48,019 nt of DNA from a virus: IMG/VR virus record IMGVR_UViG_3300027976_000058; one strand, written 5' to 3'. This document shows positions 17,597 to 48,019 of the stretch, in pieces (the stretch's first letter is position 1; each line of letters starts with the position of its first letter). The notes below the pieces were generated by a model, which saw only the letters and a list, made by a program, of their open reading frames with translations, searched no databases and was not told the DNA's origin. Both the position numbers and the translations under genes were made by a program.

Positions 17597-17625
17597 TCGC
17601 AGCCAATACAACGCTTATAATGAGA
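17597..17625 (+). promoter_or_regulatory. 29-nt promoter-like element, copy 1
   Basis: tcgcagccaatacaacgcttataatgaga. Confidence 0.6.
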
Positions 17626-17643
17626 CTACCTGAAAGGACAGCA

Positions 17644-17934
17644 ATGTTTAGACTTATTAATAAAGATAGGGATGAAAGAGTTGACCGACTCATCGCCCGT
17701 GTTACTGACGATATGGAGATGTATGGTCCAGAATCCGAAGAATACTCCACCTCAATGGCATATTTGGAACGACTTCACGCACTCAAGGCTGAAAGCAAGC
17801 CTGAGCGCGTTAGCCGTGACACAATTGCACTTGTTGTTGGAAACATCATCGGAATCCTGGTCATCGTCGCCTACGAACAGAAGCACGTGATGACGAGCAA
17901 GGCTTTCGGAACAATCCTAAAGACGAGAAACTAA
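17644..17934 (+). CDS. hypothetical protein with a C-terminal TM segment
   Basis: The track start at 17620 is the ATG inside the TATAATGAGA promoter core. ATG 17644 follows GAAAGGA and is in frame. Confidence 0.55.
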   Translation: MFRLINKDRDERVDRLIARVTDDMEMYGPESEEYSTSMAYLERLHALKAESKPERVSRDTIALVVGNIIGILVIVAYEQKHVMTSKAFGTILKTRN

Positions 17935-17954
17935 ACAAGCAGACTTAAAGTAGT

Positions 17955-18009
17955 AAAAACACAAAGGCTGTGCGAGATTTAATAATCCCGCATAGCTTTT
18001 GTGTTTTTG
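17955..18009 (+). terminator. intrinsic terminator closing the late/structural unit
   Basis: About 19-bp stem (acacaaaggctgtgcgaga / tcccgcatagcttttgtgt, with G-U pairs) followed by TTTTT. Confidence 0.7.
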
Positions 18010-18083: not shown

Positions 18084-18112
18084 TCGCAAGAAATACAACG
18101 CTTATAATGAGA
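18084..18112 (+). promoter_or_regulatory. 29-nt promoter-like element, copy 2
   Basis: tcgcaagaaatacaacgcttataatgaga. Confidence 0.6.
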
Positions 18113-18164
18113 AGAAAGAATGGAGATTATAATATAGTGCTTAGCACCCATTCATTCTTTTTTT
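18113..18164 (+). ncRNA. candidate short (about 50-nt) transcript or attenuator: a hairpin plus U-run immediately after promoter copy 2
   Basis: agaaagaatgg ... ccattcattct stem (10 of 11 positions paired) followed by a T7 run. No ORF or RBS inside. Confidence 0.35.
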
Positions 18165-18468: not shown

Positions 18469-19212
18469 ATGACGATCAATAATCTTATTCAACAAGCAAC
18501 GCAGCATATAACCAAAAACTCGCCTATTATTTTGACGGCTGCTGGTGTTACTGGTGTTGCAACAACTGCCTATTTGGCGGCAAAAGGATCGTTTAAAGCG
18601 GCTCGAATGATTGATGCCGTCAAAAATGAGTCTCATGACCCAAAAGAACGTATCAAAAACAACATTAAGCTTGTATGGCCGTGCTATGTTCCAGCAGTTC
18701 TTTCTGGAACCGTGACTGTAGGAGCAATTCTATTATCGCATAAAGTTGACACAAGCAGAACTGCGGCAGCGGTTAGTGCATATTCCATAACCGAGAAAGC
18801 CTTTACACAATACAAAGATAAGGTTGTCGAAGAGATTGGGCAGCACAAAGAGCAAATTATTGTAGACGATATTGCCCAAGAGCAAGTTGAGAAGAATCCT
18901 CCGGGAAAAAATAACCTAGTTATTGCAGGGAGTGGCGACGTGCTTTGTTGCGAGCGATACACCGGTAGGTATTTCAACTCAACCATGGAGACTCTTCGTA
19001 AAGCACAAAACGACATAAACCAAGAGATTGTAAACCATTTGTATGTACCGCTTGATTCTTTCTATGACATGGTAAAGCTTCCATCAACGGCACACTCATC
19101 CGAAATGGGTTGGGACTCATACGAGTTCTTGGAGTTTAAGTTCTCAACCGTTATGACCGAAGACGGACGGCCATGTTTGGCGTTTGATTATAACTACGTC
19201 AAGCCAATCTAA
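18469..19212 (+). CDS. N-terminally membrane-anchored protein, paralog of 20817..21689
   Basis: 247 aa. ..TKNSPIILTAAGVTGVATTAYLAAKGSFKAARMID.. resembles ..TKKQSPHIFFAAGVIGIVGATVMACRATLKLDETLND.. Confidence 0.65.
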   Translation: MTINNLIQQATQHITKNSPIILTAAGVTGVATTAYLAAKGSFKAARMIDAVKNESHDPKERIKNNIKLVWPCYVPAVLSGTVTVGAILLSHKVDTSRTAAAVSAYSITEKAFTQYKDKVVEEIGQHKEQIIVDDIAQEQVEKNPPGKNNLVIAGSGDVLCCERYTGRYFNSTMETLRKAQNDINQEIVNHLYVPLDSFYDMVKLPSTAHSSEMGWDSYEFLEFKFSTVMTEDGRPCLAFDYNYVKPI

Positions 19213-19215
19213 GTA

Positions 19216-19244
19216 ACGCATATTATACAACGCTTATAATGAGA
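19216..19244 (+). promoter_or_regulatory. 29-nt promoter-like element, copy 3
   Basis: acgcatattatacaacgcttataatgaga. Confidence 0.6.
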
Positions 19245-19264
19245 AACTATTGAAGGAGTGATCC

Positions 19265-19465
19265 ATGCAAAACTTAAAAGAGTTTTATGCCGTAGATAAA
19301 CCTGAAGATGAAGACGACTTGCACATTCGGTTTGTGAAAGGTATTCTCGGCTCAATCGCCGGAATACTTGCCGCAATAACTGTAAATGCTATTGTTGATC
19401 TATACATTGACAGGTCTAACAACGATAAAGACAAAGACGAAGATAATAACACGATAACTCAGTAA
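19265..19465 (+). CDS. small membrane protein with an acidic tail
   Basis: 66 aa with RBS GAAGGAG. Bracketed by promoter copy 3 and a terminator. Confidence 0.6.
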   Translation: MQNLKEFYAVDKPEDEDDLHIRFVKGILGSIAGILAAITVNAIVDLYIDRSNNDKDKDEDNNTITQ

Positions 19466-19473
19466 TAGCCATC

Positions 19474-19520
19474 AAACCTAAGCATATGCCCTAACCGGCA
19501 TGTGTTTAGGTTTTTCTTTT
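19474..19520 (+). terminator. intrinsic terminator
   Basis: 17-bp stem aaacctaagcatatgcc / ggcatgtgtttaggttt (G-U pairs) followed by a T-run. Confidence 0.7.
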
Positions 19521-19533
19521 CAAGAAGGAAATC

Positions 19534-19974
19534 ATGCTTAAGAAAGAAATAAAGTACACAACCTTTGACGATGAAGAAGTCTCAGACATCTTCTACTTCA
19601 ATATTTCAAAGGCCGAGCTTGTTGAGCTTCAGGTCGATTACGTCGAAGGTTTCGACAAAGCTATAAACCGTATTGTCGAAGCTGAAGACACTCAAAAGCT
19701 TATAAAAGAGTTTAAGCGCCTTGTATTGTTCTCCTATGGAGAAAAGTCTCCTGATGGAAAGCGGTTCATCAAAAACGACCAGCTCCGTGAAGAATTCGCT
19801 CAAAGCGCGGCATATTCTGAGCTATTCATGCAGCTTGCTACCAATGCAAACGCTGCTTCTGAGTTCATAAATAGTGTAATCCCTAAGGGATTAGGAGAAG
19901 CTCTGGATCAAGACAAACCGAATGGCCCACCCCCAGCCCCTATCGCACCGATTCAAAACAACCCTAACTTATAA
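19534..19974 (+). CDS. hypothetical protein
   Basis: 146-aa ORF with RBS GAAGGAA and a Pro-rich C-terminus. Confidence 0.6.
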   Translation: MLKKEIKYTTFDDEEVSDIFYFNISKAELVELQVDYVEGFDKAINRIVEAEDTQKLIKEFKRLVLFSYGEKSPDGKRFIKNDQLREEFAQSAAYSELFMQLATNANAASEFINSVIPKGLGEALDQDKPNGPPPAPIAPIQNNPNL

Positions 19975-20816: not shown

Positions 20817-21689
20817 ATGAAATTTATTCCAAACTCAGTAACTCGATCTGTGGCAAACAAAGTTTTGACCACAAAAAAGCAGTCCCCGCATATTTTCTTT
20901 GCTGCGGGTGTAATTGGTATTGTTGGTGCAACTGTTATGGCTTGTCGTGCAACACTAAAGCTTGATGAAACTCTGAATGATATTCAGAGGGACATAGAAG
21001 CAATTAAACCGGACGAAGTTACTAACAAAAATGCGGATTACTATAAAGACGTTGGATACGTTTATAGTAAGAATCTTATCCGTGTTGGTCGTCTGTATGG
21101 CCCTTCAGTGGCTCTTGGTGCGGTATCTATCGCAGCCCTAACTGGGTCGCACGTCAGTCTTGCCCGGCGCAACACAGCGCTAAGTGCTACTGCAGTAACT
21201 CTTGCTCAGGCATTTGACAACTACCGTGTTCGGGTCAAGGCAGAACTTGGCAACGAGCGTGAGTTAGATATTTACCATTCTGTTGAAAACAAGATTATCT
21301 CGAAAGTTGATGGCTCAAAAGAGATTGTAAAAGTAGCAGATCCAAACACATGGTCCCCGTATGCACGATTCTTTGATGAGTACTCGCCCTATTGGGAGAA
21401 AAATGCTGAGTTGAATCGAGTCTATGTCAACTGTCAACAAAACTACTTCAATCATCGACTACAAGCACATGGGCACGTCTTCTTGAACGAAGTGTACGAC
21501 ACGTTTGGTATTAAACGAACTAAAGCTGGTCAGGTTGTCGGCTGGATCATTGGCAAAGACGGTGATAACTATATAGACTTTGGTATGTATGCCTGCCATA
21601 ACAGAGACTTTATTAACGCAAGTGAACGTTCAATTCTTCTAGACTTTAATGTTGACGGAGTTATCTATGATAAGCTGGGAGGCGCGTAA
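20817..21689 (+). CDS. N-terminally membrane-anchored protein, paralog of 18469..19212
   Basis: 290 aa with RBS GGGAGG. Shares N-terminal architecture with 18469..19212. Confidence 0.65.
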   Translation: MKFIPNSVTRSVANKVLTTKKQSPHIFFAAGVIGIVGATVMACRATLKLDETLNDIQRDIEAIKPDEVTNKNADYYKDVGYVYSKNLIRVGRLYGPSVALGAVSIAALTGSHVSLARRNTALSATAVTLAQAFDNYRVRVKAELGNERELDIYHSVENKIISKVDGSKEIVKVADPNTWSPYARFFDEYSPYWEKNAELNRVYVNCQQNYFNHRLQAHGHVFLNEVYDTFGIKRTKAGQVVGWIIGKDGDNYIDFGMYACHNRDFINASERSILLDFNVDGVIYDKLGGA

Positions 21690-27945: not shown

Positions 27946-27974
27946 TCGCAATTAATACAATGCTTATAATGAGA
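27946..27974 (+). promoter_or_regulatory. 29-nt promoter-like element, copy 4
   Basis: tcgcaattaatacaatgcttataatgaga. Confidence 0.55.
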
Positions 27975-28114
27975 GAAGAGGTAAGATACGAAGGTGTATA
28001 AGAGAAAACTTATACCTACCTGGCGGCACCTGAAAAAGTGCTTAACGACTAGTTTTCGATAGGCTAGTAACCCACGCTTCTCTTTTTTTCTTTACCAACT
28101 AATTAGGAGAATAA

Positions 28115-28485: not shown

Positions 28486-28721
28486 CTCTTTTATATTTCC
28501 TCTGGCCCGGAGGAAAGTGACCTAGATCGCTCGCGTAACATAACCGGGTTTACATCTAATCGTCACACAAACTGATAACTGTCCCTTTTTTAGAGTGGCA
28601 GAAAAACAGTAAGGTAGTGCGGAAACCACTGCTGGGTACCTTTCGCTCCTGTGGGCGTCTCCCCGCCTGAGCACGCGGGATACAAACTGCTCCTATTCGC
28701 AAACAACTAATGGAGGAAATA

Positions 28722-29114: not shown

Positions 29115-29117
29115 AAC

Positions 29118-29146
29118 TCGCAGAATTTACAACGCGTATAATGAGA
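29118..29146 (+). promoter_or_regulatory. 29-nt promoter-like element, copy 5
   Basis: tcgcagaatttacaacgcgtataatgaga. The 65 bp at 29116..29180 are identical to 31278..31342. Confidence 0.6.
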
Positions 29147-29173
29147 ACAAACCCACTAATCATTGGAGAAATT

Positions 29174-29428
29174 ATGAATGGCAACCTAATGAATGCTTTG
29201 GCAAAGAGCCCAACAAGTGGTAAAAGAGAGTTCGCAATCACAACAGTAGAATTAACATCCAAAGCCTTAATAGGCATCATGGCTGTTGAAGCCGTACTTG
29301 TTGCATGTGCGCGGGACTGGCTTTTATCATTAATGAGCGACAGCCCATATAATTCAATTTGGAATGAATCCACTACATTACTTAAAGATGTAATAGTAGA
29401 GTTTGATCAAAAACAAAACTGCGAGTAA
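29174..29428 (+). CDS. small membrane protein, cassette family A (84 aa)
   Basis: ATG follows TGGAGAA. The track start at 29141 is the ATG inside the promoter core. The C-terminus ..QKQNCE is shared with 29906..30148. Confidence 0.6.
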   Translation: MNGNLMNALAKSPTSGKREFAITTVELTSKALIGIMAVEAVLVACARDWLLSLMSDSPYNSIWNESTTLLKDVIVEFDQKQNCE

Positions 29429-29437
29429 AAACGCAAA

Positions 29438-29467
29438 GAAGGAGACCCACACGGGTTTCCTTTTTTT
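29438..29467 (+). terminator. intrinsic terminator (type 1: ggagaccc-acac-gggtttcc + T7)
   Basis: Direct reading. Confidence 0.75.
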
Positions 29468-29602
29468 GTCGTATAAGGATAACTACTAAGAATGTGTAAT
29501 GAAGACTTAAAGAGTAACATTCTGTAGGTGTTATACATGTTAAGATTAAATCCAATATATGGCACGACTTATATTTACCAACTAATTAAGGAGTAATAAA
29601 CA

Positions 29603-29848
29603 ATGCATCCTGGAATGAAGTGCAACGTATGTAATTTGGTTTGTACAGAAAACGAAAGAACTGAAGATGGTTATTATGCAGACCCATGTCTAGGTGTGCT
29701 CCCCGGAGTTATATTTGCTTGCTGTGGTCATGGGAAAAAAGATTACGGGTACGTGGCCTTTGAAAACGGAGCCACGATTAGATTTGATCTTATTATAAGT
29801 GAGTTTCAAAAGTTTTCCAAGCACAATAACTTCATAGGACGTGAGTGA
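29603..29848 (+). CDS. Cys-rich small protein (putative zinc-binding)
   Basis: 81 aa with RBS TAAGGAG. Contains CNVCNLVC..C..ACCGH. Confidence 0.55.
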   Translation: MHPGMKCNVCNLVCTENERTEDGYYADPCLGVLPGVIFACCGHGKKDYGYVAFENGATIRFDLIISEFQKFSKHNNFIGRE

Positions 29849-29849
29849 A

Positions 29850-29878
29850 TCGCAGAATTTACAACGCCTATAATGAGA
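29850..29878 (+). promoter_or_regulatory. 29-nt promoter-like element, copy 6
   Basis: tcgcagaatttacaacgcctataatgaga. Confidence 0.6.
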
Positions 29879-29905
29879 CAACTCACCTACCAAGGAGACT
29901 TAACC

Positions 29906-30148
29906 ATGAATGACAACCACATCAATACTATGACCGAGACCACCGAAGATGATACGAGTGAGTTTCCAACCACAGCAATGACATTAGTAGCTTGCGCCGT
30001 AATAGGCGCTACGCTTCCAACAGTCGCGCGCTTTGGATGGAACTATATTCGTACCGGATTTGAGAGCTTGCGTCCTAATAAAGATTTGGAAGCGGTTTAT
30101 TACATAAGTGAATCTGACGAAGATGAGAATAATCAAAACTGCGAGTAA
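29906..30148 (+). CDS. small membrane protein, cassette family A (80 aa)
   Basis: ATG follows CAAGGAGAC. The N-terminus MNDNHINTMTETTEDD resembles MNDNQVDTMTETTENG of 31336..31557. Confidence 0.6.
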   Translation: MNDNHINTMTETTEDDTSEFPTTAMTLVACAVIGATLPTVARFGWNYIRTGFESLRPNKDLEAVYYISESDEDENNQNCE

Positions 30149-30160
30149 AAACGCAAAGGA

Positions 30161-30187
30161 GGAGACCCCACAAGGGTCTCCTTTTTT
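30161..30187 (+). terminator. intrinsic terminator (perfect 8-bp stem ggagaccc/gggtctcc + T6)
   Basis: Direct reading. Confidence 0.8.
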
Positions 30188-30243
30188 GTCGTATAGGGAT
30201 ACTATTTATAATAAAACAACCAACTTCATAGGACGTAAGTAAA

Positions 30244-30272
30244 TCGTATATAATACAACGCTTATAATGAGA
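30244..30272 (+). promoter_or_regulatory. 29-nt promoter-like element, copy 7
   Basis: tcgtatataatacaacgcttataatgaga. Confidence 0.6.
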
Positions 30273-30289
30273 CAACTACTGGAGGAATT

Positions 30290-30469
30290 ATGAAATTTAC
30301 ATCAGGATATATGTTGGGCGCAATTACCGTAATTGCACTCGGAGGATCATTCCTAGCTGGAATCATTGCCAAGATGGCAATTGATGAAAAGATAGAAGAA
30401 ACTCTGACGCAAACTCGGACAAATGCAACCAACTCAGTTCTGAATATGTTCAAAACCAAAAGTAACTGA
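30290..30469 (+). CDS. small membrane protein (59 aa)
   Basis: Translated by hand. RBS is TGGAGGAA. Sequence begins MKFTSGYMLGAITVIALGGSFLAGIIAKMAIDEK... Confidence 0.55.
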   Translation: MKFTSGYMLGAITVIALGGSFLAGIIAKMAIDEKIEETLTQTRTNATNSVLNMFKTKSN

Positions 30470-30476
30470 CTAAAAA

Positions 30477-30506
30477 GGGGGAGCCTAACATGGCTTCTTC
30501 TTTTTT
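30477..30506 (+). terminator. hairpin plus T-run (type 2: gagcc-taacat-ggctt) overlapping the ATG at 30490
   Basis: Same element as 31015..31046. Confidence 0.45.
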
Positions 30507-30762
30507 CATAAATGCCTTAGAAAGAGGACAAATGTTTCAGTTTATAAATGGACAATATGGTTATGTGGTAGAGCTTGGTGAGAAGTTTCCACCGTTGCCT
30601 GTCACTGGAGTTGGTGACGAGATTCCATTTGCGGCGGCTTTGACTAACTCGATTCAGAATGGAACAATCAAAGAGCCGGGTAAGTATTTTATTCACTTTA
30701 CGAATGATGATTTAACCTCATTGAACTATGAAGTTTCTCGTGTATATGAACGTGACCAATAA
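30490..30762 (+). CDS. hypothetical protein (90 aa; start uncertain, alternative ATG at 30532)
   Basis: Track ORF. The first ATG sits in the loop of the hairpin. Confidence 0.5.
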   Translation: MASSFFINALERGQMFQFINGQYGYVVELGEKFPPLPVTGVGDEIPFAAALTNSIQNGTIKEPGKYFIHFTNDDLTSLNYEVSRVYERDQ

Positions 30763-30764
30763 AA

Positions 30765-30793
30765 TCGCAGAATCTACAATGCCTATAATGAGA
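30765..30793 (+). promoter_or_regulatory. 29-nt promoter-like element, copy 8
   Basis: tcgcagaatctacaatgcctataatgaga. Confidence 0.6.
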
Positions 30794-30812
30794 CAACCTA
30801 TAAGGAGACATT

Positions 30813-31010
30813 ATGAACAAAATCAAAGAAGTTGCTATCAACACCAAGAACCATCTGAAGCGTAACACCGTTTCTTATGCCTTAGGAGCACTTGCTATTT
30901 CAGCAATTGCCCTACAGCAAAAGAACGCAAAATCCTTCTATACGTTCCTGGAAAGTGAAGGCATTGACGTGATGAAGTACCTTAATGACGAACAATATGA
31001 AGAACTCTAA
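30813..31010 (+). CDS. small membrane protein (65 aa)
   Basis: RBS is TAAGGAGAC. Contains a TM segment VSYALGALAISAIAL. Confidence 0.6.
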   Translation: MNKIKEVAINTKNHLKRNTVSYALGALAISAIALQQKNAKSFYTFLESEGIDVMKYLNDEQYEEL

Positions 31011-31014
31011 AAAA

Positions 31015-31046
31015 GGAAGGAGCCTAACATGGCTTCTTCTTTTTTT
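31015..31046 (+). terminator. intrinsic terminator (type 2)
   Basis: ggaaggagcc-taacat-ggcttcttc followed by a T-run. Confidence 0.7.
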
Positions 31047-31048
31047 AA

Positions 31049-31077
31049 TCGCAGATAATACAACGTCTATAATGAGC
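31049..31077 (+). promoter_or_regulatory. 29-nt promoter-like element, copy 9
   Basis: tcgcagataatacaacgtctataatgagc. Confidence 0.55.
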
Positions 31078-31094
31078 CTACCAAGGAGACATAA

Positions 31095-31229
31095 ATGTTT
31101 GAAATCTTTCTATTAATCATTTTATTCATCCCTCTCGCAATTGCAGCTATCGCCATTTGGGCGATGAGTGTACTTGTGGGACGGATGTTTCGACTGATCT
31201 CAGGAATATTTGGACTAAGTGCCCGATAA
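31095..31229 (+). CDS. hydrophobic peptide (44 aa)
   Basis: Translated by hand. RBS is CAAGGAGAC. Sequence is MFEIFLLIILFIPLAIAAIAIWAMSVLVGRMFRLISGIFGLSAR. Confidence 0.5.
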   Translation: MFEIFLLIILFIPLAIAAIAIWAMSVLVGRMFRLISGIFGLSAR

Positions 31230-31238
31230 AGCTTTAAA

Positions 31239-31267
31239 GAAGGAGACCCACACGGGTTTCCTTTTTT
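31239..31267 (+). terminator. intrinsic terminator (type 1)
   Basis: gaaggagaccc-acac-gggtttcc + T6. Confidence 0.75.
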
Positions 31268-31279
31268 GTCTTGATTTAC

Positions 31280-31308
31280 TCGCAGAATTTACAACGCGTA
31301 TAATGAGA
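31280..31308 (+). promoter_or_regulatory. 29-nt promoter-like element, copy 10
   Basis: tcgcagaatttacaacgcgtataatgaga. Confidence 0.6.
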
Positions 31309-31335
31309 ACAAACCCACTAATCATTGGAGAAATT

Positions 31336-31557
31336 ATGAATGACAACCAAGTTGATACTATGACCGAGACCACAGAAAATGGTACAAAAGAGGTCGCAAT
31401 CACAGCGGCGACATTTGCAGCAGGCGCATTAATATTCGTCGTGCTTAAAAGAGTCGTACGGTATGTGAGGCGAGACTCTATTACACCATTAATGTGGAGC
31501 CGGCAATTTAACCCAGTTTGGCAAGAATCCACTAAAGTAATTCAAGATATGGATTGA
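31336..31557 (+). CDS. small membrane protein, cassette family A (73 aa)
   Basis: ATG follows TGGAGAA and is in frame with track ORF 31219..31557, whose 5' part runs through the terminator and promoter. Confidence 0.6.
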   Translation: MNDNQVDTMTETTENGTKEVAITAATFAAGALIFVVLKRVVRYVRRDSITPLMWSRQFNPVWQESTKVIQDMD

Positions 31558-31570
31558 AAACTCGTAGAAG

Positions 31571-31599
31571 GAGGGGACCCCACAAGGGTCTCCTTTTTT
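31571..31599 (+). terminator. intrinsic terminator
   Basis: gaggggaccc-cacaa-gggtctcc + T6. Confidence 0.75.
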
Positions 31600-31611
31600 G
31601 TCTTGATTTAC

Positions 31612-31640
31612 TCGCAGAATTTACAACGCCTATAATGAGA
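31612..31640 (+). promoter_or_regulatory. 29-nt promoter-like element, copy 11
   Basis: tcgcagaatttacaacgcctataatgaga. Confidence 0.6.
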
Positions 31641-31659
31641 CTACCAACAAGGAGTAATC

Positions 31660-31827
31660 ATGATCTGGACTATCGGATATCTCATCATTGCATTCGCTGC
31701 TATAGCGACTCTAGCCAAAGTTCTATGGAATCTTTATACGATTATCACAGAGCTTGAGCATGAGTTAGACTATGTGTACGAACTCATTGGTGAGCACATC
31801 GTTAACCTATCAGAAAACAACGAGTAG
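31660..31827 (+). CDS. small membrane protein (55 aa)
   Basis: Translated by hand. RBS is CAAGGAGTAA. Sequence begins MIWTIGYLIIAFAAIATLAKVLWNLYTIITELEHELDYVYE... Confidence 0.55.
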   Translation: MIWTIGYLIIAFAAIATLAKVLWNLYTIITELEHELDYVYELIGEHIVNLSENNE

Positions 31828-31836
31828 GAGTTAAAA

Positions 31837-31866
31837 GAAGGAGACCCACACGGGTTTCCTTTTTTT
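31837..31866 (+). terminator. intrinsic terminator (type 1)
   Basis: gaaggagaccc-acac-gggtttcc + T7. Confidence 0.75.
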
Positions 31867-31878
31867 GTCTTGATTTAG

Positions 31879-31907
31879 TCGCATATTATACAATGCTTAT
31901 AATGAGA
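31879..31907 (+). promoter_or_regulatory. 29-nt promoter-like element, copy 12
   Basis: tcgcatattatacaatgcttataatgaga. Confidence 0.6.
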
Positions 31908-31924
31908 CCAATAAGGAGCAAATA

Positions 31925-32071
31925 ATGATAAAAAAATTCCTAGACCTTGTAAACGCCAATAAACAACGAGCAGAAGATAGACGTCGAGAACGAAACAAAA
32001 ACTTCGTGATCGGCGGAATTATCCTAGCTATTGTATTAGCAACAAAAGACAAAGGAAAACGTAATCATTAA
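31925..32071 (+). CDS. small basic membrane protein (48 aa)
   Basis: Translated by hand. RBS is TAAGGAGCAAA. Sequence begins MIKKFLDLVNANKQRAEDRRRERNKNFVIGGIILAIVLATKDKGKRNH. Confidence 0.5.
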   Translation: MIKKFLDLVNANKQRAEDRRRERNKNFVIGGIILAIVLATKDKGKRNH

Positions 32072-32093
32072 AAACAATTTATTTCGACTCAAG

Positions 32094-32125
32094 ACCGAGG
32101 CCCTACACAAGGGCTTAGGTTTTTT
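32094..32125 (+). terminator. intrinsic terminator (type 3: accgaggccc-tacacaa-gggcttaggt + T-run)
   Basis: Direct reading. The same element recurs 300 bp downstream. Confidence 0.7.
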
Positions 32126-32137
32126 GACCCGTATACG

Positions 32138-32166
32138 TTGCATACTATAAAATACCTTTAATGAGA
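32138..32166 (+). promoter_or_regulatory. 29-nt promoter-like element, copy 13 (degenerate; TATAAT replaced by TTTAAT)
   Basis: ttgcatactataaaatacctttaatgaga aligns position-for-position with the consensus. Confidence 0.35.
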
Positions 32167-32189
32167 CAACTACCTACCAAGGAGTAATT

Positions 32190-32387
32190 ATGTTAGAACA
32201 AGACGTGATAAATATGTTGTACGGAATTATGAACGCGATTAAGACCACTCAACCAAAGACTGATCGAGAAATAAAATTTTTTAATAGTCTGACAAAAGAG
32301 CTGGACAAGATTAAGGACAACCACCCAAAACTGTACATGAGCGCACGCGCTCATTACATCCAAGATTACATCGACGAGCAGAACTGA
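32190..32387 (+). CDS. hypothetical small protein (65 aa)
   Basis: RBS is CAAGGAGTAA. Confidence 0.6.
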   Translation: MLEQDVINMLYGIMNAIKTTQPKTDREIKFFNSLTKELDKIKDNHPKLYMSARAHYIQDYIDEQN

Positions 32388-32393
32388 CTCAAG

Positions 32394-32427
32394 ACCGAGG
32401 CCCTACACAAGGGCTTAGGTTTTTTTT
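32394..32427 (+). terminator. intrinsic terminator (type 3)
   Basis: Same hairpin as 32094..32125, followed by T8. Confidence 0.7.
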
Positions 32428-32455
32428 GTCGTATAGTGTAACCAAAGGAGAAATA

Positions 32456-34033: not shown

Positions 34034-34308
34034 AAAAGCGAAATATTTGGTCAGATTTGACGGACGAACAAGGTGTGTGAATGTGTATGAAAGTGTGTTA
34101 AATTATACGAAACAACCAAATTTATTATGCGTTTTTAGTGATAACCAACTTTGTGGTGATCGTCAAATCTAAAACTCAAAAAGTACTACGTATTTATACC
34201 CCCCTCTATACGACTTAATATATGAAGAGAGTATAGAGGTATGACATTTTACCCACAACTCTTTGTTACCCAAAACTGGTCAAATCTGGCCAAAAGGAGA
34301 ATTAGACA
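34034..34308. other. 275-bp non-coding region with iteron-like and inverted repeats (candidate origin or operator region)
   Basis: GTCAAATCT occurs at 34162 and 34279, with its inverse AGATTTGAC at 34053. There are three GTGTRTGAA-like units at 34072..34100. A 9-bp inverted repeat is cctctatac (34203) / gtatagagg (34231). Confidence 0.35.
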
Positions 34309-34824
34309 ATGCAAGAGGTCTGGAAACCAATCGAAAGATTTCCAAGTTACAGTATAAGTTCGTTTGGAGAAGTCTTAAACCACCGAACAGATAAGCTAAT
34401 GGCAAAAAGCCGAACAATGCAGGGCGACTACAAAGTAACACTCGTACAGTATGGTGTAAGACTAACTAGATCCATAAGAGTTCTTGTGGCAGAAGCATTT
34501 GTTGATCCTCCATATTTTGGCCCAAGCGATTATGGAGTATTCTGTGATACCGTCATTATGCTGGATAATAACAAAGAGAACACGTTTGCACCAAACCTAG
34601 CATGGCGACCTTCTTGGTTTGCATGGAAGTATTCTCGACAGTTTGTAGAAGATCAACCAGAAAGCTATTACATAAAAAGAGTTAGTAATGTAGACAATAG
34701 TAAAGGATATCCGTCAATCATTGATGCGGCTATTAAGGATGGGCTTCTATTTGAAGATGTCTGGAAATCAGCTACAATGGGAACCGCAGTATACCCAACA
34801 GGAGCACACTACATATTTGGATAA
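34309..34824 (+). CDS. NUMOD4/HNH_3-like homing-endonuclease homolog, apparently lacking the catalytic histidines
   Basis: EVWKPIERFPSYSISSFGEV is NUMOD4-like. The ..RVLVAEAFV.. and ..VIMLDNNKENTFAPNLAW.. stretches occupy the positions where HNH_3 proteins have vHRLVaeaF and vdHiDgnkxNN. Confidence 0.55.
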   Translation: MQEVWKPIERFPSYSISSFGEVLNHRTDKLMAKSRTMQGDYKVTLVQYGVRLTRSIRVLVAEAFVDPPYFGPSDYGVFCDTVIMLDNNKENTFAPNLAWRPSWFAWKYSRQFVEDQPESYYIKRVSNVDNSKGYPSIIDAAIKDGLLFEDVWKSATMGTAVYPTGAHYIFG

Positions 34825-34833
34825 CGTATACTC

Positions 34834-34862
34834 TCGTTAAGAATACAACGCTTATAATAGAG
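34834..34862 (+). promoter_or_regulatory. 29-nt promoter-like element, copy 14 (variant ...TATAATAGAG)
   Basis: tcgttaagaatacaacgcttataatagag. Confidence 0.5.
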
Positions 34863-34911
34863 AGACTCTGGATATGCAAACGCATTTCTTTACTTTTTCA
34901 ATTGGAGGGAC

Positions 34912-35755: not shown

Positions 35756-38437
35756 ATGGAATTAGAAACAACGGAATATTTAGTACACTATGGAATTATC
35801 CGTCGATCAGGAAGGTATCCTTGGGGATCTGGTGGTAATAACGAAGGAAGCACCTATGTTACCGAGAATAATAGAACTTTCTTAGATTACGTAAAGTCGT
35901 TGTTTAAAAAAGGTATGACTGAGTCCCAAATTGCAGAGGGATTCGGAATGTCAACAACTCAATTACGGGCAGCCCGTACCTTGGCTAAGTCCGAGCAAAG
36001 AGCGTCTGATATTTCTATGATTGAGCGTCTAAAAGAAAAGGGAATGTCAAACACCGCTATTGGCGAGCGCATTGGCATGCCTGAGGCTACAGTTCGATCA
36101 CTACTTAAACCCTCAGCTAAGCTTAGTAGTGACTCTATTCAGTTATCTGTGGATGCTCTTAAAGCACAAGTCGATGAGAAAGGTTACCTCGATGTTGGTG
36201 TAGGCACTGAGAACTTACTTAACATCAGTAAAGAACGACTTAATGTCTCCCTAGAAATTCTTCGTGCTGATGGATATCAAGTGTACTCTAACATTAAAGC
36301 ACCACGTCTAAATACCGCATTCGACACAAGGCTTAAGGTACTTACAACTCCAGACAAGACCTTTATTGATGTTATTAAAAATAAAGATAAGATTTCACAG
36401 GTCAACGAAAGACTTAACGATACCGGCGAAACATTGCTTGGTATCGAAAAACCTTTAGCACTCAACTTAAAGAGAGTTGATATTGTCTATGGGCCTGACG
36501 GTGGAGCTCTAAATGATGGTGTAATGTATGTCCGTCCTGGAGTAGACGACGTTAATCTTGGAGGGTCAAGTTATGCACAAGTAAGAATTCAGGTTGGTGC
36601 TGGACACTACATAAAGGGTATGGCTATCTATAAGGATGGGCTTCCTGATGGTGTAGATGTACAGTTTAACACTAACAAAAAGGATACAGGAAATAAGCTT
36701 GATTCACTAAAGGAACTTACCCGAGATGACAAAGGTGCCGTAGACAAAGACAACCCGTTTGGCACGGTGATCAGTAGACAGATTGGTACAGAGCTTCCTA
36801 ATGGGAGGGTAAAGGTTACGTCAGTAGTAAACATTGTGAATGAAGCGGGTGATTGGTCTAACTGGTCCGACACTATAGCATCCCAGGTTCTGTCTAAGCA
36901 GCCACCAAAGCTTGCTAAAGAACAACTGGATATGACGTATGAGGCTCGTAAGAACCAGCTTGATGAGATAATGACATTGACTAACCCTACTGTAAAAAGG
37001 AAGATGCTTGAAGACTTTGCTTCAGATGTTGATGCAGCAGCCGTACATCTAAAGGCATCTAAGCTTCCTAGGCAGTCATGGCACGCCATCCTTCCAGTTA
37101 ACAGCTTGAAAGACACAGAGATCTATGCACCTAACTACAATGATGGCGAACGAGTTGCGTTGATTCGTTATCCACATGGTGGAACGTTTGAGATCCCTGA
37201 GCTTACAGTAAACAATAAGAACCGTGAAGCCAAGAAGTACCTAGATAATGCGCGAGATGCCGTTGGTATTAATTCAAAGGTAGCTGAGCGCCTGTCTGGT
37301 GCCGACTTTGATGGTGACACAGTACTTGTAGTGCCAAATAATTCAGGTAAGCTTAAGTCAACGCCAGCGTTGGAAGGCCTAAAAAACTTTAATCCTCGCG
37401 AACAGTATCGAGGATTCAAAGGCATGCCAGTAATGAAAAACACGGGAGCCGAAATGGGTAGCATATCCAATCTAATAACCGACATGACTATCGCTGGTGC
37501 ATCTAGGGATGAGTTAGTTAGAGCGGTACGTCATTCAATGGTTGTTATTGATGCTGAAAAGCATGCGCTGAACTACAAAGAATCAGCTAAGGTTAACGCT
37601 ATCAAGCAGCTTAAAGCTAAGTACCAGCCTACAGGTGGATCATCCACTATCATCTCAAGGGCCCAGAGTCCAAGGTATCAAGAGAAGATGAAGGCTCGCC
37701 CAATGTCTGAAGGTGGGCCAATCAATAAAAAGACTGGTGAGCTTGAGTTTGTACCATCAGGCCAAACTAACTATAAGACTGGGCAGCCTAAGCAAGAGAG
37801 GAAGGCGCTCCTTGAAGTAACCCGAGACGCACGGGAGATCACGTCTGGTAAAGACCGACGCATAGAAAATCTCTATGCCGACCACTCTAACAGACTTAAG
37901 AGTATGGCCAACGCGGCTAGGCTGGAGGCAATTAATACCCCCCGTTCAAACTGGTCACCCTCTGCCAAGAAGACATACTCAAAGGAAGTTAAGGAACTTA
38001 ACTCAGCCTTGGCCCTGGCTAAGTCCAACGCCCCTCGCGAGAGGCGTGCTCAAAACATTGCTGAGGCAACATACAAAGCTAAGTTAGAATCAAGCGTAGA
38101 AATGCAAACTAACATAGCACTTCAGAAGAAGGTAAAGCATCAAGCTCTTGCTGCAGCACGCAATAGAACTGGTGCTTCTAAAGAAAAAATTGTGATCACG
38201 GCAAAGCACTGGGAAGCTATTCAAGCTGGTGCTATCAGTGACAGTAACCTTAAGCAGATACTTACTAATTCTGATATGGATTCTGTTAAAGAGTTTGCTA
38301 GACCGAAGTCATCGAAGACAATGACATCAAGTAAGACCCGCCGAGCCGAGGCTATGCTAGCACAAGGTTACACTCGTGCTGACATTTCTAAGCAGTTGGG
38401 AGTACCACTTGGTACTCTCGATGAGGCACTCTACTAG
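35756..38437 (+). CDS. candidate single-subunit two-barrel RNA polymerase (YonO / crAss gp66 / RDR-like) with two N-terminal and one C-terminal HTH modules
   Basis: 893 aa. ERVALIRYPHGGTFEIPEL...DAVGINSKVAERLSGADFDGDTVLVVPN (DFDGD codons 37304..37318) mirrors beta-prime VLLNRAPTLHRLGIQAF...NADFDGDQMAVH. The HTH-like segments are GMTESQIAEGFGMSTTQLRAARTL, GMSNTAIGERIGMPEATVRSLL and GYTRADISKQLGVPLGTLDEAL. Confidence 0.55.
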   Translation: MELETTEYLVHYGIIRRSGRYPWGSGGNNEGSTYVTENNRTFLDYVKSLFKKGMTESQIAEGFGMSTTQLRAARTLAKSEQRASDISMIERLKEKGMSNTAIGERIGMPEATVRSLLKPSAKLSSDSIQLSVDALKAQVDEKGYLDVGVGTENLLNISKERLNVSLEILRADGYQVYSNIKAPRLNTAFDTRLKVLTTPDKTFIDVIKNKDKISQVNERLNDTGETLLGIEKPLALNLKRVDIVYGPDGGALNDGVMYVRPGVDDVNLGGSSYAQVRIQVGAGHYIKGMAIYKDGLPDGVDVQFNTNKKDTGNKLDSLKELTRDDKGAVDKDNPFGTVISRQIGTELPNGRVKVTSVVNIVNEAGDWSNWSDTIASQVLSKQPPKLAKEQLDMTYEARKNQLDEIMTLTNPTVKRKMLEDFASDVDAAAVHLKASKLPRQSWHAILPVNSLKDTEIYAPNYNDGERVALIRYPHGGTFEIPELTVNNKNREAKKYLDNARDAVGINSKVAERLSGADFDGDTVLVVPNNSGKLKSTPALEGLKNFNPREQYRGFKGMPVMKNTGAEMGSISNLITDMTIAGASRDELVRAVRHSMVVIDAEKHALNYKESAKVNAIKQLKAKYQPTGGSSTIISRAQSPRYQEKMKARPMSEGGPINKKTGELEFVPSGQTNYKTGQPKQERKALLEVTRDAREITSGKDRRIENLYADHSNRLKSMANAARLEAINTPRSNWSPSAKKTYSKEVKELNSALALAKSNAPRERRAQNIAEATYKAKLESSVEMQTNIALQKKVKHQALAAARNRTGASKEKIVITAKHWEAIQAGAISDSNLKQILTNSDMDSVKEFARPKSSKTMTSSKTRRAEAMLAQGYTRADISKQLGVPLGTLDEALY

Positions 38438-38953: not shown

Positions 38954-39385
38954 ATGGACGAATATAACGAATCAATCATGGTTGCAATGCTCCCAACAAC
39001 CAATGATTGGTGTAAAATTGAGCTTCCACACACTACTTTGGTGTATGCGGGCGAAATAAAGGACAGTTCCGTAACAGAGTTCAATAAGATGGCAAAAGAA
39101 GTTTCCGATTTAGCGGTTCTAAGCCGTCCTTTGGCCATTGATACCTTTGGCATTGAGGTTTTTGGTAACGAAGAAAAAGTCGACGTTATCAGATTACTGG
39201 CAACCCCAGAGCTTATGGCTATTCGGAATACTTTAGTTAAATATGACGTAAGTGAACACCCATTCCACCCACACGTAACTGTCGGGCCGGTTGGTTCTGC
39301 AAATTACCCAATACCAACAAGACTATTCTTTGATCGATTCTTAATTAAGTACGGTCAAGAATCGATGGTATTCAATCTACGATAA
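38954..39385 (+). CDS. 2H phosphoesterase superfamily protein (LigT / Acb1-like)
   Basis: 143 aa with two H-x-T motifs, LPHTTLVY (H26) and HPHVTVGP (H107). RBS is TTGGAGAC. Confidence 0.6.
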   Translation: MDEYNESIMVAMLPTTNDWCKIELPHTTLVYAGEIKDSSVTEFNKMAKEVSDLAVLSRPLAIDTFGIEVFGNEEKVDVIRLLATPELMAIRNTLVKYDVSEHPFHPHVTVGPVGSANYPIPTRLFFDRFLIKYGQESMVFNLR

Positions 39386-47803: not shown

Positions 47804-48019
47804 ATGCCAGAAACTAGTAAACCAAAAATCGATAACTTTCTTGAGCATTATGGTATAAAAGGACAGCGGTGGGGTGTTCGTCGAAAAAGCGGATCGTCCG
47901 GCAGTAGTTCTTCTGGAAAAGATAATAAGAAAGGCGAATCGTCCGGCAGTAGTTCTTCTGGAAAAGATAATAAGAAAGGCGAATCGTCCGGCAGTAGTTC
48001 TTCTGGAAAAGATAATAAG
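47804..48019 (+). CDS. 5' part of the wrap-around repeat protein (continues at base 1, or at base 124 if the ends overlap)
   Basis: ATG follows TAGGAGGTAAA. Sequence is MPETSKPKIDNFLEHYGIKGQRWGVRRKSGS followed by SGSSSSGKDNKKGES repeats. There is no stop before the window end. Confidence 0.6.
   Translation, partial: MPETSKPKIDNFLEHYGIKGQRWGVRRKSGSSGSSSSGKDNKKGESSGSSSSGKDNKKGESSGSSSSGKDNK
47897..48019 (+). repeat. 45-bp tandem repeat, 2.7 copies, identical to 1..123
   Basis: Direct comparison of the two window ends. Confidence 0.95.

Follow-up and report, generated by a model that had tools for sequence, protein, structure and literature searches.

Organization of the mini-gene array

We analyzed a 48,019-nt stretch of viral DNA (IMG/VR record IMGVR_UViG_3300027976_000058; hereafter the window), which represents a whole or almost whole phage genome of 48 kb with a GC content of 42% and all its genes on the + strand; it corresponds to a 47.7-kb contig of JGI metagenome 3300007516. 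This work deals with an array of very small genes at positions 29118-32427, with a 30-nt element repeated along it, and with an 893-amino-acid (aa) protein encoded at 35756-38437 that is predicted to be an RNA polymerase (RNAP). The array holds 11 small open reading frames (ORFs; c1 to c11), nine of which form complete promoter-leader-ORF-terminator units with ORFs of 44-84 aa and predicted transcripts of 194-325 nt. A first-pass annotation, made by reading the letters without database searches, had described about ten cassettes that each carry their own promoter and terminator. This stands for nine of the 11 ORFs and fails for c2 and c5, which have neither signal; a degenerate promoter upstream of either was considered and ruled out, the position weight matrix (PWM) scores there being within background. 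The broader view of stand-alone units bounded by stereotyped, predicted expression signals was borne out by the nine units, all of which combine the element, a leader and a hairpin with a T-run. The features of the array and the polymerase gene are listed below, with promoters and terminators as predicted.

29118..29147, + strand, promoter P1 (TCGCAGAATTTACAACGCGTATAATGAGAA), PWM score 46.1 bits, identical to P8 including the leader
29174..29428, + strand, c1, 84 aa with a single hydrophobic helix, paralogous to c8 and c3
29436..29467, + strand, terminator T1, type A (GGAGACCC-ACAC-GGGTTTCC, then T7), -17.7 kcal/mol, z -5.66
29603..29848, + strand, c2, 81 aa, six Cys, ORFan, stop codon abutting P3, best upstream PWM score -3.1
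29850..29879, + strand, promoter P3, 47.7 bits
29906..30148, + strand, c3, 80 aa, one hydrophobic helix, N-terminus c8-like and 3' end c1-like
30156..30187, + strand, terminator T3, type A' (GGAGACCCC-ACAA-GGGTCTCC, then T6), -22.0 kcal/mol for a stretch that includes the upstream stem
30222..30243, + strand, orphan 3'-end remnant of a c2-like gene, joined to P4, sharing 86% identity with 29828-29883 across 56 nt
30244..30273, + strand, promoter P4, upstream box TCGTA, 44.3 bits
30290..30469, + strand, c4, 59 aa, N-terminal hydrophobic helix, 40-42% identity to loci L057, L032 and L024
30478..30506, + strand, terminator T4, type B (GGAGCC-TAACAT-GGCTTC, T-run), -10.6 kcal/mol, z -2.96
30532..30762, + strand, c5, 76 aa from Met15 (90 aa from the ATG in the T4 loop), soluble
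30765..30794, + strand, promoter P6, 44.7 bits
30813..31010, + strand, c6, 65 aa, homologs in L057, L032 and L008 (40-42% identity, E down to 2e-14)
31015..31046, + strand, terminator T6, type B, -17.1 kcal/mol
31049..31078, + strand, promoter P7, 41.9 bits
31095..31229, + strand, c7, 44 aa, very hydrophobic, isoelectric point (pI) 11.7
31236..31267, + strand, terminator T7, type A, beginning a 73-nt composite unit
31280..31309, + strand, promoter P8, 46.1 bits
31336..31557, + strand, c8, 73 aa with a single hydrophobic helix, paralogous to c1 and c3
31570..31599, + strand, terminator T8, type A', -17.0 kcal/mol
31612..31641, + strand, promoter P9, 47.7 bits
31660..31827, + strand, c9, 55 aa, N-terminal hydrophobic helix
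31834..31866, + strand, terminator T9, type A
31879..31908, + strand, promoter P10, 46.2 bits
31925..32071, + strand, c10, 48 aa, basic (pI 11.0), short hydrophobic segment
32093..32125, + strand, terminator T10, type C (GACCGAGGCCC-TACACAA-GGGCTTAGGT, then T6)
32138..32167, + strand, degenerate promoter P11 (TTGCATACTATAAAATACCTTTAATGAGAC), 25.2 bits
32190..32387, + strand, c11, 65 aa, soluble
32393..32427, + strand, terminator T11, type C, closing the array, followed by the polycistronic helicase-to-RNAP operon
35756..38437, + strand, predicted two-barrel RNAP of 893 aa fused to helix-turn-helix (HTH) domains, proposed reader of the element (phrog_4291, GADFDGD, fold match)

Hairpins with T-runs occur at nine sites, 7-24 nt past the stop codons, and fall into the three stereotyped types already recognized at first reading (type A with five copies, B and C with two each). 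For the four examples that were folded, minimum free energies range from -10 to -18 kcal/mol and z-scores from -2.5 to -5.7. The whole 48 kb contains only about 13 + strand T-runs with a stable stem-loop of -10 kcal/mol or better, so that the presence of nine of them inside these 3.3 kb is a strong concentration. Terminator and promoter together form the expected composite repeat, estimated at about 75 bp and found as a 73-nt unit at 31236, 31568 and 31835 with 71-89% identity. The sequence TTTTGTCGTATA was also seen at the junction after three terminators that lack a following promoter (29464-29475, 30184-30195 and 32424-32435; three copies versus 0.37 expected), and three terminators with a following promoter share GTCTTGATTTA; the TTTTGTCGTATA junction may be a second signal or the scar of a promoter loss.

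Seven or eight of the encoded peptides carry one hydrophobic helix, which agrees with their first description as mostly single-pass or very basic, but basic peptides number only three (c4, c7 and c10); six cysteines occur in c2, and c5 and c11 appear to be soluble. Roles in host takeover, superinfection exclusion or anti-defence, suggested for them at first reading, are conjectural. Scans of nine of the 11 cassette ORFs and of the downstream gene g32456 against Pfam and PHROG gave nothing significant or above the curated cut-off, with DUF7786 for c5 and phrog_12653 for c6 as the sole sub-threshold matches. A deep search with c2 among 5.8 billion proteins returned three distant homologs, none of them annotated. 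One of the small number of cassettes that do have homologs in arrays elsewhere is c4. The longest ORF of c5 starts at 30490 inside the loop of T4 (30478-30506, TAACATGGC); the equivalent hairpin at 31015-31046 precedes a promoter instead. A start of c5 at Met15 (30532), with AGAGGA as ribosome-binding site, seems more likely than one at the ATG of the T4 loop.

A conserved strand-specific element upstream of the small genes

The information profile delimits an element of 30 nt, TCGCA-N5-TACAAYGCNTATAATGAGA, that consists of TCGCA, five variable A/T-rich bases and TACAAYGC-N-TATAATGAG-A, with no conservation further upstream. Searching the window with its pattern TACAAYGYNTATAATGAG yields 12 exact matches and three near ones, every one on the + strand, where chance would give 0.47; a PWM scan finds 14 matches on the + strand, none on the - strand and 0.1 in shuffled sequences. 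Nine copies lie in 29118-32167, with a degenerate one at 32138 (25 bits versus 40-48 for the others), and four strong copies are found beyond the array at 17597, 18084, 19216 and 27946. The 29-nt promoter first proposed is therefore a real and strand-specific element, although its conserved span amounts to 30 nt and it is not confined to the array. The hexamer TATAAT is invariant in 12/12 strong copies. Between the G after TATAAT and the ATG lies a C/A-rich leader, which was present as expected, with a measured length of 21-31 nt rather than about 20 nt, and which ends in AAGGAG or GGAG, a strong Shine-Dalgarno sequence. Since 13/13 strong copies are followed within about 60-420 nt by a T-run with a stable stem-loop before it, every strong copy heads a short insulated unit. 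The element is absent from the long operons, among them those of the polymerase gene and of all structural genes, and its full-length form had no match in 185,579 bacterial genomes (one representative per species).

Despite its TATAAT -10 hexamer, the element lacks the geometry of a sigma-70 promoter. Upstream of the TCGCA box, where a hexamer at a spacing of 16-18 nt would mostly fall, conservation does not exceed 0.6 bit (about 0.3 on average). The TCGCA box is separated from TATAAT by 13-14 nt, the would-be spacer is conserved, and no TG precedes the -10 hexamer. A long, conserved and strand-specific motif upstream of genes that runs into the predicted transcribed region is, in turn, what is seen in the promoters of phage polymerases such as those of T7 and P23-45.

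These features bear on the possibility that the element is a strong promoter for the primary sigma factor of the host, combined with the site of a phage regulator or with an UP-like or discriminator sequence, and that the array is an ordinary early region transcribed by the host, as in T7, T5 and SPO1. The perfect TATAAT and the generic intrinsic type of the terminators fit such a promoter, and in 4/9 array copies four of six positions agree with TTGACA at a spacing of 18 nt, a likeness that comes from the preceding terminator tail or gene end. In well-studied phages, moreover, it is typically the host polymerase that transcribes the small early genes. We nevertheless regard a host promoter as unlikely, because a conserved -35 is missing, the boxes at -25 to -21 and -15 to -8 sit inside the would-be spacer, and the region shows no excess of generic sigma-70-type sites (34 found versus 29.2 +/- 5.7 expected). 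The distribution of the element among phages of different hosts weighs in the same direction.

Conservation and co-divergence across phyla

The window phage belongs to a large cross-phylum group that includes Streptomyces cluster BI, Arthrobacter clusters AM/AU, Gordonia cluster DJ, 1706-like phages of Lactococcus, Faecalibacterium phage FP_oengus and many Clostridia prophages, and that is the subject of a previous study (bioRxiv 10.1101/842583). The core of this supergroup is present: TerL, a protease-capsid fusion and a primase-polymerase (the latter two by profile matches), a helicase whose homologs are 45-69% identical, and the RNAP at about 50%. In the 5' part of the genome, the first 17.5 kb or so carry the terminase, portal, protease-capsid fusion and tail genes, and small genes with two DUF6353 genes come next. 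In the middle come the 1253-aa primase-polymerase, an SSB (single-stranded DNA-binding protein), the region of small genes, an SNF2-type helicase, a NUMOD4 endonuclease, a DUF2800 nuclease and the 893-aa protein, which is followed in the 3' part by lysin, fibre, esterase and connector genes. The density of stand-alone units, which had been thought unusual for a phage, proved not to be peculiar to the window and is a hallmark of this group.

An 18-mer scan of 2.9 million viral contigs from IMG/VR identified 65 stretches with an exact match, at least 35 of which are kin with the same synteny around the array. The CGCA box, which was not part of the search, is found at the exact offset in 33/49 sites of these kin versus 4/31 sites elsewhere. 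With a PWM built from the 12 sites of the window alone, Streptomyces phage Rima (59% GC) shows 12 sites of 21-38 bits, all on the + strand, with none on the - strand or in shuffles; Arthrobacter phage Gordon (AU) shows 10, all on the + strand, and the metagenomic relatives L075, L057 and L024 show 8-11 each. In all these phages, the sites lie on the coding strand, upstream of small genes, and alternate with stereotyped hairpins. In Rima, the repeats, leaders (GAGACCCCTAC...) and stereotyped terminators (CCCGACCCCGCAAGGGGTTTGGGTTT) follow the same promoter-gene-terminator rhythm. A near-identical 30-nt motif is thus shared by phages of Streptomyces and Arthrobacter and by a 42%-GC phage with Firmicutes-like ribosome-binding sites, which is difficult to reconcile with recognition by a host sigma factor.

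The same PWM has no match in phage 1706 or FP_oengus, each of which has a repeated motif of its own in the same layout: tcCACAwGTTTTACAyayrCTATAGTAGAAAG in 1706 (at least 10 copies) and aCGCGAAAAAtnCAnnntgCTTTATGGArG in FP_oengus (about 12 copies). The RNAP of Rima, where the motif is similar, is 50.6% identical to that of the window, and those of FP_oengus and 1706, where the motifs have diverged, are 42.6% and 35.3% identical, respectively. At 80 RNAP-encoding loci of named bacterial genomes (mostly prophages of Lachnospiraceae and other Clostridia), the matches are co-oriented with the RNAP gene, at 40 versus 1 for the window matrix and 90 versus 7 for the FP_oengus matrix. As judged qualitatively from these sequences, with no statistics attached, the motif appears to follow the lineage of the polymerase and not that of the host, which speaks against a host promoter.

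The terminator hairpins of these genomes (L070, which is Rima; L072, which is FP_oengus; L024 and L057) are also stereotyped within a genome and different between genomes, and many of their loops share a CACAAG-, GCAAG- or ACATG-like sequence. Beyond generic termination, they could be read by the phage polymerase or by another phage factor.

The 893-aa protein as a predicted HTH-fused two-barrel polymerase

The product of ORF 35756-38437 matches phrog_4291 over its full length (E = 0) and contains GADFDGD, the catalytic DxDGD loop, at residues 515-521, where it is invariant in 35 homologs. HTH units lie at the N-terminus (about residues 43-127; Pfam HTH_23, Xre-like and Sigma70_r4, scoring at the threshold or just under it), and the C-terminus has HTH-like helices. 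Its AlphaFold model (pLDDT 79, pTM 0.65) has one significant match in the PDB, Arabidopsis RDR2 (7eu1_M; E 3.3e-5, probability 1.0), and the weaker ones are all beta'/Rpb1 chains. Against a viral library, the model retrieves phage proteins named 'RNA-dependent RNA polymerase' and a Thermus phage P23-45 protein of unconfirmed identity. On the basis of sequence and model, the protein is predicted to be an HTH-fused two-barrel RNAP able to synthesize RNA. A T7-like polymerase was ruled out, with no match to PF00940. An independent preprint likewise treats the HTH protein as a putative polymerase with a core like that of RNA-dependent RNA polymerases (10.1101/842583).

In sequence comparisons, nothing meaningful was found among PDB chains, and the best relatives in IMG/VR are only 48-53% identical. 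The protein is about 50% identical to its counterparts in Streptomyces BI, Gordonia DJ and Arthrobacter AM/AU phages and 35-43% identical to those of 1706 and FP_oengus. Its family comprises at least 8000 database proteins and occurs at at least 312 loci of named bacterial genomes. In the window, the gene lies 3.3 kb downstream of the array and is the last one before the lysis/structural block; in the actinophage homologs, it occupies the extreme right end of the genome.

As a refinement of the reading in which this protein transcribes the array, it could be carried in the virion and injected, the array being an immediate-early regulon, transcribed ahead of all phage protein synthesis, as in N4 or crAss-like phi14:2. 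The location of the gene next to the lysis/structural block, or at the right genome end in actinophages, and its lack of a copy of the element would agree with this. The conserved, disordered N-terminus of the polymerase (YLVHYGIIRRSGRYPWGSGG) also loosely resembles the N-terminal motif FLEHYGIKGQRWGVRR of the DUF7211 protein encoded upstream of the terminase, and the likeness may reflect a common particle-targeting signal; the comparison of the two is, however, not significant. The homolog in phage 1706 (orf75, GenBank EU081845) bears the label 'structural protein', an unconfirmed annotation that would be the one sign of a place in the particle. On the other side, the matched P23-45 protein, of unconfirmed identity, may be the non-virion polymerase; and the group has temperate members, in which an injected polymerase would complicate lysogeny. 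Delivery with the virion is accordingly conceivable, though we consider it doubtful.

Junctions as probable sites of cassette turnover

As announced by the first-pass annotation, the array carries the marks of shuffling. Positions 29116-29180 and 31278-31342 are an exact 65-bp repeat; the orphan remnant of the c2 3' end is found at 30222-30243; and c1, c3 and c8 are paralogs (c1-c8 with 30% identity, E 6e-11; c3-c8 with 51% over 43 aa, E 2e-11). These paralogs are mosaics, since c1 and c8 share promoter, leader and first codons, c3 and c8 share N-terminal coding sequence and terminator subtype, and c1 and c3 have the common 3' end noted before. The junctions offer 60-110 bp of homology and recur every 250-400 bp; terminator-promoter junctions so spaced are therefore also substrates for homologous recombination. 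Gene content is hypervariable, as foreseen: the flanking SSB and helicase are 68-78% identical in the nearest relatives, yet only two or three of the 11 cassette ORFs have a homolog, at about 40%. A megablast of the small-gene region against 50,697 phage records gave no match.

Contigs with an identical c2 protein, from several other samples, represent the same phage, with 5-8 single-nucleotide polymorphisms in 12 kb and an identical array. In the window lineage, near-identical copies thus have an invariant array, and relatives at about 60% identity have almost wholly different content; no relative at an intermediate distance was found by the polymerase search of IMG/VR or by a helicase scan of metagenomes, which returned only about 50% identity. 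For this reason, cassette exchange was examined in cluster BI. Rima and OlympicHelado differ by one cassette-sized indel that ends within the terminator-promoter-leader repeat, Rima and DrGrey by three cassette-sized events with such ends, and Rima and GirlPower by several replacements. A first breakpoint test with narrowly drawn junction zones gave p = 0.025, and its criterion was then replaced by annotated intergenic space. On that basis, 12/19 ends of BI homology blocks are strictly intergenic versus 25% expected (p = 5e-4), and 18/19 lie in intergenic space +/- 15 nt versus 34% expected (p = 5e-8). Conservation of the functional junctions also makes alignments end there, and the indels between duplicated junctions are the cleaner evidence. 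Rearrangement at the boundary repeat is likewise reported for cluster AU (bioRxiv 10.1101/2020.01.10.891226). Swaps at the junctions, which comparison with related genomes had been expected to reveal, are thus seen in BI; the near-identical assemblies of the window phage, being one and the same phage, do not bear on exchange.

These data might suggest that the repeats are primarily recombination sequences and not transcription signals, as proposed for the 32-bp 'boundary' repeat of AU phages in the same preprint (bioRxiv 10.1101/2020.01.10.891226); the mosaic paralogs, the orphan remnant and the BI breakpoints would all be in line with it. A pure recombination sequence would have no need of a strict orientation, of a fixed distance of 21-31 nt to Shine-Dalgarno and ATG, or of a place right after a terminator. 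Nor does it easily explain near-invariant positions across genomes that lack other nucleotide similarity and are 17 GC points apart. We judge this reading very improbable and see recombination rather as a consequence of a repeated functional signal. An integron-like array was rejected as well, because the cassettes carry their own promoters and the repeats are direct, not imperfect inverted repeats of the attC type; no integrase was matched among the ORFs scanned, which did not cover every ORF of the window.

Units beyond the array and other features of the genome

The four strong copies outside the array head the following predicted units.

17597..18008, + strand, promoter 17597-17626, g17644 and a strong terminator ending at 18008
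18084..18164, + strand, promoter then a hairpin with a T7 run, ORF-less, predicted RNA of about 55 nt, -14.8 kcal/mol, z -4.05
19216..19515, + strand, promoter, g19265 (66 aa, one transmembrane helix) and terminator
27946..28089, + strand, promoter and about 120 nt of structured RNA up to a T7 run, ORF-less, z -2.28

The product of g17644 (17644-17934; 96 aa with a C-terminal transmembrane helix) has 47-57% identity in 21 related loci, unlike the ORFan cassettes, and its gene stands where relatives annotate a holin. The unit at 18084-18164 could encode a small RNA or be an 'empty' cassette left after gene loss. The gene g28115 starts 25 nt past the ORF-less unit at 27946-28089. A weak promoter-like copy at 34834 (16.5 bits), the sole weak one beyond the small-gene regions, lies 3' of the NUMOD4/HNH-type endonuclease gene (34309-34824, within 34034-34911); a 275-nt AT-rich gap 5' of this gene holds an inverted repeat, and the arrangement at 34034-34911 looks like an inserted homing-endonuclease unit.

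Several other observations concern the genome at large. Its ends overlap (47804-48019 continuing at 1 to about 445), as in a circular or terminally redundant assembly, and the ORF spanning the end junction encodes the DUF7211 protein, with tandem 45-nt repeats (15 aa, Ser/Gly/Lys-rich). At the protein level, the terminase (463-2208) and its counterparts in Gordonia and Streptomyces phages are 80% identical, despite a GC content of 42% in the window versus about 60-68% in those phages; the other shared core proteins compared reach only about 50%. The two DUF6353 paralogs (18469-19212 and 20817-21689) are located on the replication side, a position kept in FP_oengus and many related loci, as is a Phage_TAC_17 tail-assembly-chaperone-like protein (19534-19974, E 3e-40), far from the tape-measure gene. 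A gene for a LigT / 2',5'-RNA-ligase-like phosphoesterase (38954-39385; sub-threshold Pfam matches) lies 517 nt 3' of the polymerase gene, past two small ORFs. Scans of the whole window for Rfam families (gathering thresholds) and tRNAs gave no match. They include the GC-rich intergenic gap of 236 nt at 28486-28721, whose folding (-72.7 kcal/mol, z -2.97, 0/200 shuffles as good) indicates that it could be a structured RNA.

A phage polymerase as probable reader of the element

Since the motif is kept across phyla, drifts with the 893-aa protein, and this protein is the sole transcription-related gene product of the conserved core, the element is probably the promoter of the phage's own polymerase (ORF 35756-38437). 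In the mechanism that we propose, the array would consist of nine insulated monocistronic transcription units and two ORFs without signals of their own. The promoter would span about -25 to +4, with TCGCA, TACAAYGC one helical turn further on, the A/T-rich TATAAT segment and the initially transcribed GAGAC. It would be recognized by the single-subunit HTH-fused polymerase and not by a host sigma factor: the HTH domains may bind both upstream boxes, and initiation would take place at or near the G after TATAAT, which starts GAGAC. The transcript would begin with an unstructured C/A-rich leader carrying the Shine-Dalgarno sequence, continue with an ORF of 44-84 aa that usually encodes a single-pass membrane peptide, and be closed by a GC-rich hairpin with a U-run. 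Finally, the recurring terminator-promoter junctions would double as substrates for homologous recombination, leading to duplication, deletion and swap of cassettes. Promoter activity, the pairing with this polymerase, the start site and the efficiency of the terminators are deduced in this scheme from sequence and structure prediction, as would be any timing of expression or function assigned to the peptides. As a whole, the combination of an insulated mini-gene array, a phage-polymerase promoter and recombining junctions is the best explanation at hand, and we consider it reasonably likely to be correct.

Several points weigh against this scheme. The TM-scores of the fold matches are low (at most 0.25), as expected for a multi-domain protein, so that the polymerase assignment leans on profile, motif and fold combined. 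Many Actinobacteria tolerate promoters with a -10 element alone, and given the perfect TATAAT, the host RNAP could use the element alone or in addition. Being of the generic bacterial type, the terminators do not tell one polymerase from another. As the long operons lack the element, they must be transcribed in some other way, which could be terminator read-through or the host polymerase. The co-divergence argument is qualitative and rests on a handful of lineages, and cassette exchange is seen only in a sister clade (BI), the near-identical assemblies of the window phage being invariant.

A more general proposal, to which we give slightly more credence than to its negation, is that the element represents the first promoter consensus for the HTH-fused two-barrel family. 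Polymerase and promoter would form orthogonal, co-diverging pairs, perhaps virion-delivered, with the arrays as their dedicated regulon. The proposed orthogonal versions of the motif are TCGCA..TACAACGC..TATAAT, CACA..TTTACA..CTATAGT and CGCGA..CA..CTTTATGG. Because such a pair would serve phages of both Actinobacteria and Firmicutes, it would be independent of host sigma factors.

The model joins three published observations (the arrays, the 'boundary' repeat and the HTH/RdRP-like protein) in one testable scheme. An explicit consensus opens this class of polymerases to experiment, as Rima, Gordon and 1706 are culturable and the natural variants are ready-made specificity swaps. If the model is true, the compact polymerase (about 100 kDa), its 30-nt promoter and the matching terminators would make an orthogonal expression tool for high- and low-GC Gram-positives. 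It also offers a concrete mechanism for the fast turnover of accessory genes, in which a repeated functional junction every 300 bp supplies the homology. If the host polymerase reads the element instead, the array would be an ordinary, if unusually tidy, early region.

Comparison with known systems

Part of this picture has already been described, namely the arrays of small membrane-protein genes in AM/AU Arthrobacter phages (PMC5513430, PMC5679793), their 32-bp intergenic 'boundary' repeat as a recombination site (bioRxiv 10.1101/2020.01.10.891226) and the HTH protein as a putative polymerase. A small-gene array or repeat is likewise noted in Rhodococcus phages Pepy6 and Poco6 (PMC5513430, PMC5679793, 10.1101/2020.01.10.891226). 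In our literature search, which covered openly readable papers only, none calls the repeat a promoter or notes the paired terminators, the cross-phylum conservation or the link to a polymerase; the promoter-polymerase link, which is the new and testable part, appears unpublished. AM/AU phages share with the window the supergroup core (terminase, protease-capsid fusion, primase-polymerase, helicase and HTH protein) and rearrangement-prone arrays of small, mostly single-pass membrane proteins with an intergenic repeat of about 30 bp, and the Gordon motif fits the window PWM. In the papers on these phages, in contrast, the repeat figures as a recombination sequence, a promoter is never considered, and terminators and a link to the HTH protein are absent. 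The window also differs from AM/AU as a metagenomic lineage of 42% GC with about 50% identity in conserved proteins, and its main array is located between SSB and helicase, not directly after the tail/lysis genes.

Thermus phage P23-45 has virion and non-virion two-barrel RNAPs, each with its own mapped promoter motif (10.1101/2022.12.01.518664). It resembles the window phage in combining phage two-barrel polymerases with short motifs that are conserved upstream of genes of the pre-early and early classes, and one of its proteins is matched at the level of fold. The two nevertheless show no detectable sequence similarity, their promoter sequences differ, and no monocistronic array is described for P23-45, whose promoters were mapped experimentally whereas those of the window are deduced from sequence. 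To our knowledge, the P23-45 enzymes are without fused HTH domains. YonO of the Bacillus subtilis prophage SPbeta, the founding member of the class, serves one long late operon with a single mapped start and an undefined promoter sequence (PMC5467207). Like the window enzyme, it is a single chain of about 100 kDa with a DxDGD loop that is distantly homologous to multisubunit RNAPs and serves a subset of phage genes. The window enzyme is set apart, by description, through its N- and C-terminal HTH domains and a proposed regulon of many short insulated units.

In the host-takeover module of Bacillus phage SPO1 and in the T5 pre-early region, small early genes are densely clustered and have strong promoters and terminators of their own. 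Their promoters fit the host sigma consensus, whereas the element of the window does not have host geometry. With T7, finally, the window shares a promoter of about 23-30 nt that extends into the transcribed region (TATAG-GGAGA in T7, TATAAT-GAGAC here), is strand-specific and co-diverges with its presumed polymerase, along with terminators made of a hairpin and a U-run. The polymerase folds are unrelated, two-barrel here and T7/Pol I-like there, and the proposed regulon of the window enzyme would be made of monocistronic units for tiny peptides in place of the long middle and late operons of T7.

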